The notes under the pieces were generated by a model. The model worked only from the letters and a program-made list of their open reading frames with translations. It did not search any database and was not told where the DNA came from. Shown piece by piece: positions 47,280-50,422 of a stretch of 64,000 bases of DNA (the first letter of the stretch is position 1; each line of letters opens with the position of its first letter). The translations under genes and the position numbers were made by a program. The stretch is from Candidatus Heimdallarchaeota archaeon (GTDB lineage: Archaea > Asgardarchaeota > Heimdallarchaeia > Heimdallarchaeales > Heimdallarchaeaceae), in contig JAUVXV010000001.1 of NCBI GenBank assembly GCA_030603365.1, positions 416,001 to 480,000 of the forward strand, given 5' to 3'.

Positions 47280-48206
47280 CTATCCTCTATTTATTATCAT
47301 TGAAGCTAGGTTTTTTGCTATGATATTATCTTTGAACAAAATGTTTTCAGATAATACTGTAAGATTTGTTTGCTTTTCTATAGGTTTTATCAGATCTTTG
47401 TCAGTACTATGTACAATAAAAACATCACACAAATCTTGATACATTTTTGCTATTTCTAATGTGGATATAGCATAACCTTCTGATTTCATCAATTTGGCAG
47501 TTGGACCACTAACAGGATTTTTGCCAATAATAGGGCTTATAGCAATGATTCTCTCTTTGTTCTTACGTAATCGTTTTTCTATTGGCATCAATTTAATGAT
47601 TGGACCTATGCTTGTTATGGGATTGCTTGGACCAATAATTATTTTATCACTTTGGTCAATACTTTTCAATGCAACTTCTGGAACCTCTGCTTCATTTAGG
47701 TTTTTGATATATATTTTATCTATCTCAACTTCTCCTTTTTGCTTTACCCAAAACTCTTGAAAGTGAATATCTTCTCCTTTATTTGTTATAATCCTAGTTT
47801 CAATATGCGTATCTGAACTTGGAAAAATTCTTGAATCTATTTGTAATTTTTTTCTTAATATATCTGTTATTTCGGATAATTTTTTCCCTTTTCTAATTTG
47901 ATCCGTTCTGAATATGTGAGTTGCTAGATCTCTATCCCCAATATTAAACCAAGTGTCATATCCAAGATTATTCAAATGCTTCAGTGTGTTAAATGTATCA
48001 TTCTTTATTCCCCAAAATCTCTCAGTGTCTAGAATATTACTCAATAAGTAGATTATTGTGTCAATGTCTGGTGATACATATAATCCATATATCCATATAT
48101 CGTCTGCTGAATTGGCTATTATGGATATTTGATTTTCATCTAGAATTTTTCTAAAACCTTGTATTAATTTTGGAGTTCCGGTTCCTCCTGAAAGAAAAGT
48201 AATCAT
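47280..48206 (-). CDS. cofD: 2-phospho-L-lactate transferase (F420 biosynthesis)
   Basis: 'LSGGTGTPKL', 'SPDIDT', 'WGIKNDTF', 'GDRDLATH..RT', 'HFQEFWV', 'GPSNPITSIGPI', 'SGP'. Confidence 0.96.
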   Translation of the reverse strand: MITFLSGGTGTPKLIQGFRKILDENQISIIANSADDIWIYGLYVSPDIDTIIYLLSNILDTERFWGIKNDTFNTLKHLNNLGYDTWFNIGDRDLATHIFRTDQIRKGKKLSEITDILRKKLQIDSRIFPSSDTHIETRIITNKGEDIHFQEFWVKQKGEVEIDKIYIKNLNEAEVPEVALKSIDQSDKIIIGPSNPITSIGPIIKLMPIEKRLRKNKERIIAISPIIGKNPVSGPTAKLMKSEGYAISTLEIAKMYQDLCDVFIVHSTDKDLIKPIEKQTNLTVLSENILFKDNIIAKNLASMIINRG

Positions 48207-48254
48207 GTTAAAACCTTGATTTGATTTCTGAAAAGGTTTGATGTCCTAAGAAAA

Positions 48255-49127
48255 TTATTTCTTCTTAGTTTTACTTTTTTTAGTTTTTTTAGCTGCTGGT
48301 TTCTTGGCTGCTTCCTTTGGCTTAGCTGCTGGTTTCTTGGCTGCTTCCTTTGGCTTAGCTGCTGGTTTCTTGGTTGCTTCTTTTGGCTTAGCTGCTGGTT
48401 TCTTGGTTGCTTCCTTTGGCTTAGCTGCTGGTTTCTTGGTTGCTTCTTTTGGCTTAGCTGCTGGTTTCTTGGCTGTAACCCTCTTCTTTGCAATAGGTTT
48501 TACATCTGATAATCTTAATCTTGCTGAAGATTTTATAATTACTCTATAATATGCTCCATCTTCACCCATCTCAGGATTGCGAACTATTCTAATTATGTCA
48601 CCAGGTTTTGCTTGAATAGCTTTTACAGCTGGATCAGTTTCGAGAATTTTAGGGATTTGATGCTTCTCTATTTGATATCTAGTAAGAAAACTCTTGATAT
48701 CCTTAGTTTTTAGTTTAAAGTGTTGAGGAACCAATTCATGATCGAATATGTTGAAAAGAGGGTTTGTACTACTAATAATCTCAATTCCTAACTTTACTGA
48801 TTCCTTTTTAGCATAATGAGTTAATGCCGCTTCAGCAATAAGAAGTGCTTCATCCAAACTCTTTTCTTCCTGGAGTTTACCCAATGTTCTTATTGTTTTA
48901 ACACCAATTTGTGGGTTTTTAGGAAAACGAGCGATTGCTGATACTTTGTCTCCTTCTTCTTGTTTTTTTTCAGCATAAACGTCTAAAAAATCATCATCTT
49001 CGATAGTTTTTTTAATTTCGAATTCTCTGAATTCAAGAATTTCTTTGACTCCTTTTAGGATTCTCTTTTCTTTAGCTAGCTGTTCTTTAGTTGACAAGGA
49101 GGTTGCACCGCTCTCAATAACTATCAA
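48255..49127 (-). CDS. rpoH: RNA polymerase subunit Rpo5/RpoH with a eukaryote-like N-terminal jaw domain and a K/A/P-rich repeat tail
   Basis: 'FNIFDHELVPQH...IPKILETDPAV...AKPGDIIRIVR...YYRVI' Rpb5 assembly domain preceded by an extra ~125-aa domain. Confidence 0.9.
   Translation of the reverse strand: MIVIESGATSLSTKEQLAKEKRILKGVKEILEFREFEIKKTIEDDDFLDVYAEKKQEEGDKVSAIARFPKNPQIGVKTIRTLGKLQEEKSLDEALLIAEAALTHYAKKESVKLGIEIISSTNPLFNIFDHELVPQHFKLKTKDIKSFLTRYQIEKHQIPKILETDPAVKAIQAKPGDIIRIVRNPEMGEDGAYYRVIIKSSARLRLSDVKPIAKKRVTAKKPAAKPKEATKKPAAKPKEATKKPAAKPKEATKKPAAKPKEAAKKPAAKPKEAAKKPAAKKTKKSKTKKK
48289..48475. repeat. 33-bp tandem repeat (5 full + 1 partial) encoding KKPAAKPKEA(T/A)
   Basis: Unit ttagctgctggtttcttgg(c/t)tgcttc(c/t)tttggc at 48289, 48322, 48355, 48388, 48421, 48454. 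Confidence 0.97.
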
Positions 49128-49165
49128 TTGGTTTAAAATCTTTTGAAAAGTGACTAGTTTTGAAT

Positions 49166-49567: not shown

Positions 49568-50422
49568 TTATTCCATCAGGACACTTGAACTATAAAGAAA
49601 AGGACCTTCATAATCACATCTGGAACATCCATTTTCTTCTAAATCCTCTAATGTTCCAAAATCACCATTCTCTCCAATATTATATAGAATTCCACATTTA
49701 CATTTGTATAGCTTTGGAGACATTTTGCTTTCTCTTAAATACATAGGACCATAATAGTGATTAAAAATTGTCTCTTTTGAGCTATTTTTTACTTTGAGAA
49801 TATACATGTTTGATGTATTCTTTTCAAAAGGTGTTGGATATTCGTATTTATTAAAATCTACGAGTACATTTTCAATTTCTAAATCCATCAAATTGAACAT
49901 TTCAGTAATCCATTCCTCTTTTTCTTTCTCAATATCAAAAGAGAGGAAGATTTTTGATGGGATTTCCTTTGTAGCACATTGAACAGCTCTAGATAAACCA
50001 ACTTCCAACCCTTCTTTAGTCATTGAAGGTTCTAGAAAAATGTAATCAAATTGATTTCTTAATATTGCTATCATCCTGATTCTAATATCCTGATTGATAT
50101 ATCTTATGGAACGGATTTTATAATCAAATTTCAGTTTAAATACTATTTCAGGTATTCTTTTATCTATATCTAAAACCGCTAGGTCTCTTGGTTTAGAAAT
50201 CATTCCGAGAGACAAAGAAGAAAGATCCATGTCACCTAAGAAAATTATTCGCTTTTTTTCATAATTCGCTGGGTTTTCCAATAGAATTCTTCGATAGCTT
50301 GTATCCAATGTTACATAATATTGATCAAATTCAGGATTAGGTTTTCCCCTAAGTTCTTGAATCTCGCCATATGCTGTTTTAATATTATTAAGAATATCTG
50401 AATCAAGAGATCCAACGTTCAT
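49568..50422 (-). CDS. BpsA/DUF43-like aminopropyltransferase/methyltransferase-fold protein with a C-terminal Cys motif
   Basis: 'R..P..EFDQ..VT', 'IIFLGDMDLSSL', 'VLDIDKR', 'FDYIF.EP'; C-terminal CKC...CSRC. Confidence 0.65.
   Translation of the reverse strand: MNVGSLDSDILNNIKTAYGEIQELRGKPNPEFDQYYVTLDTSYRRILLENPANYEKKRIIFLGDMDLSSLSLGMISKPRDLAVLDIDKRIPEIVFKLKFDYKIRSIRYINQDIRIRMIAILRNQFDYIFLEPSMTKEGLEVGLSRAVQCATKEIPSKIFLSFDIEKEKEEWITEMFNLMDLEIENVLVDFNKYEYPTPFEKNTSNMYILKVKNSSKETIFNHYYGPMYLRESKMSPKLYKCKCGILYNIGENGDFGTLEDLEENGCSRCDYEGPFLYSSSVLME

Follow-up and report, generated by a model that had tools for sequence, protein, structure and literature searches.

A two-domain, eukaryote-type Rpo5 with a lysine-rich repeat tail in Heimdallarchaeal genomes and its possible role as a nucleic-acid tether

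We analysed a 64,000-nt stretch of the genome of a Candidatus Heimdallarchaeota archaeon (contig JAUVXV010000001.1, positions 416,001 to 480,000; the whole stretch is called the window hereafter), which carries on its reverse strand the gene rpo5 (rpoH) for the RNA polymerase subunit Rpo5. The open reading frame (ORF) is intact, with no internal stop, and its product comprises an N-terminal jaw domain, a C-terminal assembly domain, a short helical extension and a long polycationic tail with a tandem array (Table 1). Unless stated otherwise, residue numbers count from the TTG at 49127. The original prediction, made from the letters of the window, had described the gene as a eukaryote-type two-domain Rpb5 with a histone-H1-like repeat tail.

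On the evidence of the profile matches, the gene is a member of the Rpo5/RpoH/Rpb5 family and the sole Rpo5 gene found. The Pfam profile Rpb5_C (PF01191) was matched over profile positions 1-73 of 73 with 83.2 bits against a cut-off of 23.5 (E 1.1e-23), and the NCBIfam RpoH equivalog NF007129 with 85.9 bits against a cut-off of 83. When the assembly domain was compared by Foldseek with archaeal Rpo5 chains, template modelling (TM) scores of 0.86-0.91 were obtained at 36-47% identity. Exactly one Rpb5_C match was detected by profile search in the source genome (3.65 Mb, 89% complete), as in 40 of 41 related genomes; the second, canonical rpo5 that could have been the true polymerase subunit was looked for and none was found in the 89%-complete genome, of which the missing 11% could still hold another rpo5. 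The sole Rpb5_C match in the same-genus genome G015 (78% complete, 6% contaminated) is the locus L002 (G015:C117:6351-9071). The idea that it marks another type of the gene within this genus was rejected; it is of the short canonical rpoH type, 34% identical to the core in a frame of 114 aa, on a probable contaminant contig.

The homology of the N-terminal domain was addressed by sequence searches and by modelling. Pfam gave only weak matches on residues 27-119, to NA-iREase1 (NACHT-associated inactive restriction endonuclease), Mrr_cat and Rpb5_N; the last of these (PF03871), a model built from eukaryotic sequences only, stayed below its gathering score of 27 bits (13.8 bits, E 0.096). Residues 11-210 (200 aa; query positions are numbered from the TTG at 49097) were then used as a phmmer query against all PDB sequences, and the best match was human RPB5 (query 55-185 to RPB5 73-207, E 1.9e-18), with Arabidopsis NRPB5A matched from query 36-187 to 52-204 (E 3e-17). 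Eukaryotic RPB5 outranked the archaeal Rpo5 chains (82 aa), and its alignment ran unbroken out of the assembly domain and on into the jaw. Modelling with AlphaFold2 on an alignment of 71 archaeal and eukaryotic sequences yielded a predicted local distance difference test score (pLDDT) of 94-98 over residues 20-200 and gave the jaw the topology alpha-beta-beta-beta-alpha-beta-alpha-beta, a restriction-endonuclease-like fold. In the Foldseek search of this model against the PDB, ranks 1-34 were all RPB5 chains (33 eukaryotic, 2 from African swine fever virus) with probability 1.0, several of them aligned at full length over 204-215 columns with target-normalised TM scores of 0.67-0.72. Judged from the model and the searches, the N-terminal domain is homologous to the eukaryotic RPB5 jaw and holds the same orientation to the C-terminal domain, so that both the two-domain, eukaryote-type architecture and the jaw fold of the original prediction were borne out.

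Conservation in the 71-sequence archaeal and eukaryotic alignment follows the blocks known from the eukaryotic protein. R34, present in 68 of the 71 sequences, corresponds to the arginine of the eukaryotic DRGY motif in helix 1, which reads F-R-E-F in the window protein; H130, V133, P134 and H136 of the linker block are each at least 90% conserved, and T103-x-x-A106-K107 is nearly invariant. The functional blocks conserved in the eukaryotic module are the DRGY of helix 1 and the 12 residues with which the module ends, and charge inversion at the DRGY arginine is lethal in yeast (PMC1802627). The jaw appears to be of the PD-(D/E)XK type and probably is not a nuclease, because beta-3, judged by eye, carries A-R-F-P at the place of the (D/E)xK of Mrr-type nucleases.

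Compared with eukaryotic Rpb5 (RPABC1/POLR2E, yeast ABC27; PF03871 followed by PF01191; PDB 1dzf, 5xog_E, 28jc_E), the window protein has the same jaw-then-assembly order, and this family gave both its best PDB sequence match (E ~2e-18) and its best fold match (TM up to 0.72 over ~205 columns). The two share the arginine of DRGY, FP..GVK.IR, T..AK and the linker block NI..HeLVP. The archaeal jaw, however, is ~20-30 residues shorter and stays below the Rpb5_N cut-off, and whereas eukaryotic Rpb5 stops right after the assembly domain and is common to Pol I, II and III, the window Rpo5 serves one polymerase and continues into a helix and a polycationic tail of 85 aa.

The protein is likely to be 280 aa long, translated from the TTG at 49097 (codon 11). 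This start is preferred because M/L-[VAS]-[ST]-KEQ, the N-terminus of most orthologues, matches this codon, because no structure was modelled before residue 10, and because a possible TATA box, TTTTAAA, lies ~38 nt upstream of it but just 8 nt from the annotated TTG, a spacing that does not suit a start at 49127. The DNA of the upstream 'peptide' is conserved among close relatives. The extra N-terminal domain of ~125 aa that had been predicted is therefore retained as a domain, but its size is ~115 aa, the earlier count having included 10 N-terminal residues that are probably untranslated. Two further ORFs over the repeat, 48304-48549 (+) and 48203-48493 (-), were rejected as by-products of the repeat; the lysine frame alone is continuous with Rpb5_C and conserved.

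Behind the assembly domain, the modelled helix falls in a [KR]S.S/ARL.L motif that is conserved throughout family f1 and absent from the outgroups. The tail that follows is composed of 38.8% K, 24.7% A, 14.1% P and 7% Thr, has a net charge of +28 and was modelled without secondary structure at a pLDDT of 52-61. Its DNA has a G+C content of 42%, compared to 33% for the remaining gene and the window. Read in codons, the array consists of five full KKPAAKPKEA[T/A] units and a partial sixth, which vary at two sites only, AAA/AAG (synonymous) and ACC/GCC (T/A). The array is far beyond chance, and the ~85-aa K/A/P-rich tail with five or more near-identical 33-bp repeats of the original prediction is real, disordered and basic.

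Table 1. Features of the rpo5 locus and related loci. Positions without a prefix refer to the window; prefixed positions refer to other loci or to contigs of the source genome.
Feature	Position	Strand	Basis or remark
rpo5/rpoH ORF	48255..49127	-	290 codons, TTG at 49127, stop 48255-48257; identical 290-aa protein in protein collection (P0002)
Preferred start, TTG at codon 11 (280-aa product)	49095..49097	-	orthologue N-termini, model disorder
Possible TATA box TTTTAAA, coding strand	49132..49138	-	read directly from sequence
Jaw domain, residues 11-124	48756..49097	-	weak Pfam matches, phmmer, AlphaFold2, Foldseek
Rpb5_C / RpoH assembly domain, residues 125-197	48537..48755	-	PF01191, NF007129, Foldseek
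Short extension KSSARLRL, linking assembly domain to tail	48513..48536	-	modelled helix, residues 200-205
Disordered polycationic tail, residues 206-290, 85 aa	48258..48512	-	composition, pLDDT
Tandem array, 33-bp unit, 5.7 copies	48289..48475	-	Tandem Repeats Finder: 96% matches, score 339
OapC-like (origin-associated protein C) zinc-ribbon protein, 119 aa	49166-49525	-	two matched stretches, best residues 59-111
BpsA_C-like gene (branched-chain polyamine synthase C-domain)	49568-50422	-	directly on upstream side of rpo5
Multi-jaw Rpo5 examples	L028:1447-2871; L015:1474-2790; L016; L017	- (L028, L015)	families f3, f4 of the same order
uS3 with (TKPKETKVKE)n C-tail	C1:107551-108594		own genome
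uS4 fused via K/P/E/V linker to HhH_5 (helix-hairpin-helix) domain	C1:124573-125655		own genome; unusual fusion
uS11 with charged N-extension	C1:125643-126338		own genome
Toprim protein with Lys-rich repeat segment	C14:304784-306400		own genome
Lys-rich repeat protein	C17:147713-148450		own genome; no Pfam match

The distribution of the tail was followed on a maximum likelihood tree of 47 proteins, calculated from the folded core with the tail columns excluded. All 33 basic-tailed proteins formed one clade (Shimodaira-Hasegawa-like approximate likelihood ratio test, SH-aLRT, 97), nested in a family clade (support 99) in which the remaining tails are acidic or mixed; the outgroups lack a tail, except for one with an acidic end. 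This topology places a single origin of the tail at the base of the clade of 33 sampled proteins, which makes it old. The recent expansion proposed in the original prediction thus fits the near-identical units, but not the tail itself. A long tail is kept by every protein of the basic clade with an intact C-terminus, and no truncating loss was seen in this clade.

The composition of 40 basic tails, some of them shortened by contig ends, was analysed. They are 37-160 aa long, contain 30-45% Lys and 6-31% Thr and have net charges of +12 to +53, while the best repeat periods are 5, 7, 8, 11, 12, 16 and 22-27 aa, and repeat number and unit vary among the relatives. Even the seven-member subclade of the window protein mixes KKPAAKPKEAT, KKTTAKPKETA, KKIIDSKPT-type and KEAPA/KKAPA units. 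No motif, unit, period or Ser/Thr/Tyr position was conserved among the tails of the genus. The pattern suggests that selection acts on the charge and length of the tail and not on its sequence, and it is the one expected of a functional polyelectrolyte rather than of a motif-reading platform, because charge and length are kept while the sequence is replaced. Tail lengths in databases are often shortened, as the array breaks short-read assembly, and one database entry (P0025, 295 aa) has its tail in another frame (QNQKQHQVRQPQ...), through a frameshift in the repeat or a sequencing error.

The tail with its long basic stretch was found in the window's own genus and in one further genus. In three other genera of the family (L035-L038; P0042-P0046) the same helix is followed by a short basic patch and an acidic Glu/Asp-rich tail, or by a very short mixed tail; the basic-then-acidic polarity of these tails recalls Rpo13. 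In one sister family the protein ends without a tail (L011, 189 aa). In two other sister families, f3 and f4, Rpo5 is 430-500 aa long and carries two or three tandem Mrr_cat/Rpb5_N-like domains, joined by lysine-rich linkers (e.g. KKKRRTKKKKKK), with a single Rpb5_C; one Rpb5_C match each was obtained in 14 of 15 genomes of these multi-jaw families, and none in G038 (63% complete).

Two-domain proteins seem to be widespread in Asgard archaea. In 301 sampled Asgard genomes, judged by frame length, 119 of 150 best Rpb5_C matches lay in stop-to-stop frames of at least 171 aa, and short frames of 81-125 aa were limited to a few families. Two-domain proteins of 175-196 aa are annotated just as 'subunit H' in records of Heimdall, Hodarchaeales and Thorarchaeota. 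The large Asgard family f11 often has two adjacent Rpb5_C matches ~650 bp apart in frames of ~190-220 aa (G121:C32:8313-9172, G221:C111:1732-2600, G270:C207:2969-3830), which from their frames look like tandem two-domain rpo5 genes. In the literature, the N-terminal jaw of Rpb5 is given as eukaryotic and absent from archaea (PMC3479171, PMC3906176, PMC1802627), a survey of the PD-(D/E)XK superfamily assigns Rpb5_N to Eukaryota only (PMC3424549), and a 2026 survey of archaeal small subunits treats Rpo5 only as a partner of Rpo6 (PMC13257274). According to the original prediction, Asgard forms with a jaw were already in the literature; this was not confirmed, as our literature search, which covered full texts and not the supplementary tables of Asgard genome papers, found no paper in support of it and no published two-domain archaeal Rpo5 or tail.

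Canonical archaeal Rpo5/RpoH (~75-85 aa; PDB 8cro_H, 4qiw_H, 7ok0_H) has an orthologous assembly domain and is likewise single-copy, but has neither jaw nor tail, and its gene is usually the first of an rpoH-rpoB-rpoA cluster (PMC10833476). The window rpo5, in contrast, sits between the OapC-like gene and cofD, and rpoB is located on another contig. The gene lies inside a 701-kb contig with the OapC-like and BpsA_C-like genes upstream and cofD downstream, and the order OapC-like/BpsA_C-like - rpo5 - cofD is kept across the whole family. A polyamine-related gene thus adjoins the gene for a polycation-tailed subunit, possibly by coincidence.

A lysine-rich polymerase tail has been described for Rpo13 of Sulfolobus (PDB 4ayb, 4b1o), which sits beside Rpo5 at the downstream DNA end, in place of the eukaryotic jaw, and whose C-terminal tail is disordered in the crystals; this tail has 11 K in its last 22 residues, is needed for non-specific binding of double-stranded DNA in electrophoretic mobility shift assays (Kd ~2 uM), and was likened to histone tails by its authors (PMC3479171). 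The resemblance to the window tail is a functional analogy only, in the lysine tail and its location. Rpo13 forms a helix-turn-helix subunit of its own and has an acidic N-terminal tail, whereas the window tail belongs to Rpo5, is repetitive and has four times the length; the window Rpo5 itself also has the jaw for which Rpo13 was suggested to substitute. The Rpo13 family was not among the Pfam matches of the whole window protein.

In composition, disorder, short tandem repeats and rapid length variation, the tail is like the C-terminal domain (CTD) of histone H1, chlamydial Hc2 (PF07382), Pseudomonas AlgP and the tails of actinobacterial HU and ribosomal proteins, Lys/Ala/Pro-rich sequences that bind DNA. 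Those proteins are abundant chromatin or ribosomal proteins, however, and the window tail is on a polymerase subunit. With 39% K, 25% A and 14% P it resembles H1, composition alone not being family-defining, and contains no [ST]Px[KR] motif, which occurs at least once in only 19 of the 40 orthologous tails. The H1/H5 winged-helix domain (PF00538) had no match in the Pfam scan at E <= 0.1, and Hc2 was the sole Pfam match of the tail alone at E <= 10, with 8.3 bits against a cut-off of 40 (E = 3). The label 'histone-H1-like' is hence justified for the composition, but not by a globular H1 domain, a conserved S/TPxK or heptad motif or membership of Hc2. NCBIfam matches of the tail to ValRS and PspC were discarded as low-complexity hits far below the cut-offs, and an actinobacterial-type L21 with a KPAAKP tail (P0049) was the only non-Rpo5 match in the first protein search. 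The Pol II CTD sits on the largest subunit and not on the Rpo5 counterpart, and the tail periods of 5-27 aa differ between species. By these comparisons the window Rpo5 is not a member of the H1, Hc2, Rpo13 or CTD families, and its tail is a lineage-specific, fast-evolving polycation with a probable DNA-tethering function.

We propose that the tail would tether the polymerase electrostatically to nucleic acid irrespective of sequence, the most likely target being duplex DNA near the downstream end, and give this reading a probability of roughly 0.6. Its mode of action would be that of the Rpo13 tail and of the Lys/Ala/Pro tails found on chromatin proteins of bacteria and eukaryotes. The role is suggested because the tail would be anchored, behind a short helix, on a module lying beneath the downstream DNA: the jaw is the predicted homologue of the RPB5 module that lines the far end of the Pol II downstream DNA channel, and the assembly domain would dock Rpo5 on the largest subunit. 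From there the tail could hold duplex DNA ahead of or around the enzyme; by general polymer scaling, 85 residues have a contour length of ~300 A and an end-to-end distance of the order of 70 A. Such a tether would raise the non-specific affinity for DNA, which might serve promoter search, template retention or competition with chromatin proteins, and replication slippage would keep altering the repeat unit and the copy number. Consistent with this location, cross-links to DNA on the downstream side of the active site have been obtained with both archaeal subunit H and eukaryotic Rpb5 (PMC2847245). We also count in its favour that lysine-rich repeats occur on other nucleic-acid-binding proteins of the genome, namely uS3, uS4, uS11 and a Toprim protein. 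Rpo6 was considered as an electrostatic partner of the tail and set aside, as in the source genome it has at most 105 aa and only a short acidic N-terminal end.

Some observations weigh against the tether. The sister genera are mostly acidic after a short basic patch and one sister family is tail-less, so that a long polycation is dispensable for Rpo5 function, and a tail of this composition would bind RNA as well as DNA. Furthermore, since the short-read contigs of seven related assemblies (L004, L005, L008, L010, L012, L030, L039; 7 of 34 family-f1 loci) end inside the tail repeat, the exact copy number, possibly also in the source assembly, is not reliable to the unit, while the existence of the array is on firmer ground. 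These same breaks, together with the other frame of P0025, are what would speak for an artefact of assembly or gene calling, for instance a mis-assembled repeat or a chimeric join that attached the tail to rpo5. The chance of this is close to nil, given a contig of this length with conserved flanks on either side of the gene, and an in-frame basic tail followed by cofD in more than 30 independent assemblies from several sources. The tail thus proved neither an artefact nor absent from close relatives.

A tail without function, tolerated as a by-product of slippage during replication, is improbable, although less so than any of the other alternatives. Low-complexity lysine repeats arise easily and would do no harm on the exposed terminus of a peripheral subunit, the sequence and period of the tail turn over very fast, even between close species, and the near-identity of the units at the DNA level implies recent slippage or conversion; comparable repeats are also present on several other proteins of the genome, and in the sister genera the tail is acidic, short or missing. 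A neutral tail would nevertheless hardly be expected to persist in all intact basic-clade proteins, with no truncating loss seen in a clade of single origin and with a charge of at least +12 even in the contig-cut tails among the 40 analysed. The tail codons, at 42% G+C against 33%, are richer than AT-biased drift would give, and the lysine-rich frame is the sole one in frame, save in P0025. A slightly lower probability attaches to a tail that binds RNA in place of DNA, be it the nascent transcript or mRNA/rRNA in a transcription-translation contact, with Rpo5 as one of a lineage-wide group of lysine-tailed proteins that handle RNA. This idea gains from the other K-rich repeats of the genome being on ribosomal proteins, of which uS3 and uS4 form the lining of the small-subunit mRNA entry site, and from the reach of a disordered 85-residue chain, which could extend around the enzyme. 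Against it speaks that the RNA exit is near the stalk, opposite Rpo5, which itself lies at the downstream DNA end. Cross-links of subunit H are to the DNA there (PMC2847245). Long uS3 frames (255-376 aa) are moreover found order-wide whatever the type of Rpo5 tail, revealing no coupling as far as frame lengths go, and as polycations do not discriminate, the RNA reading differs from the DNA tether in target and not in mechanism.

Least favoured among the functional alternatives, and very unlikely in our view, is a regulated platform with CTD-like Lys/Thr modification or a linker-histone-like chromatin module. The H1-CTD-like composition, the Thr content of 6-31% and the [ST]Px[KR] motifs of some tails would be in line with it, and a lysine in the basic tail of Rpo13 was reported to be methylated in S. 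solfataricus (PMC3479171). A system of readers and writers, however, needs a conserved motif, unit or period, and none exists across the genus, the window tail having only 7% Thr next to its lack of [ST]Px[KR]; the modification platform suggested in the original prediction was accordingly not sustained. For a chromatin module, the H1 globular domain and a significant Hc2 match are missing, and one tail per polymerase cannot compact a genome. Returning to the electrostatic tether, it may be speculated, at slim odds that we place just above those of the platform and just below those of the RNA target, that the combination of a jaw 'guard rail' and a built-in polycation in one subunit would help the polymerase to invade or slide on histone-coated DNA, or would cluster polymerases by charge, the basic-then-acidic tails of the sister genera being an auto-inhibited version. 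If this is true, evolution would have experimented with charged disordered polymerase tails in the archaea closest to eukaryotes, separately from the Pol II CTD.

If the tail is neutral, the finding would come down to a modest annotation note. With the jaw-containing protein as the sole Rpo5 form found here, the origin of the jaw module would move into the archaea, which would offer a prokaryotic system for its study. The tail is a clear example from nature of a core polymerase subunit that carries a disordered polyelectrolyte, with its charge conserved and its sequence not, and the acidic, absent and multi-jaw variants would provide a comparative series for the effects of such tails on DNA search, processivity and the passage through chromatin.

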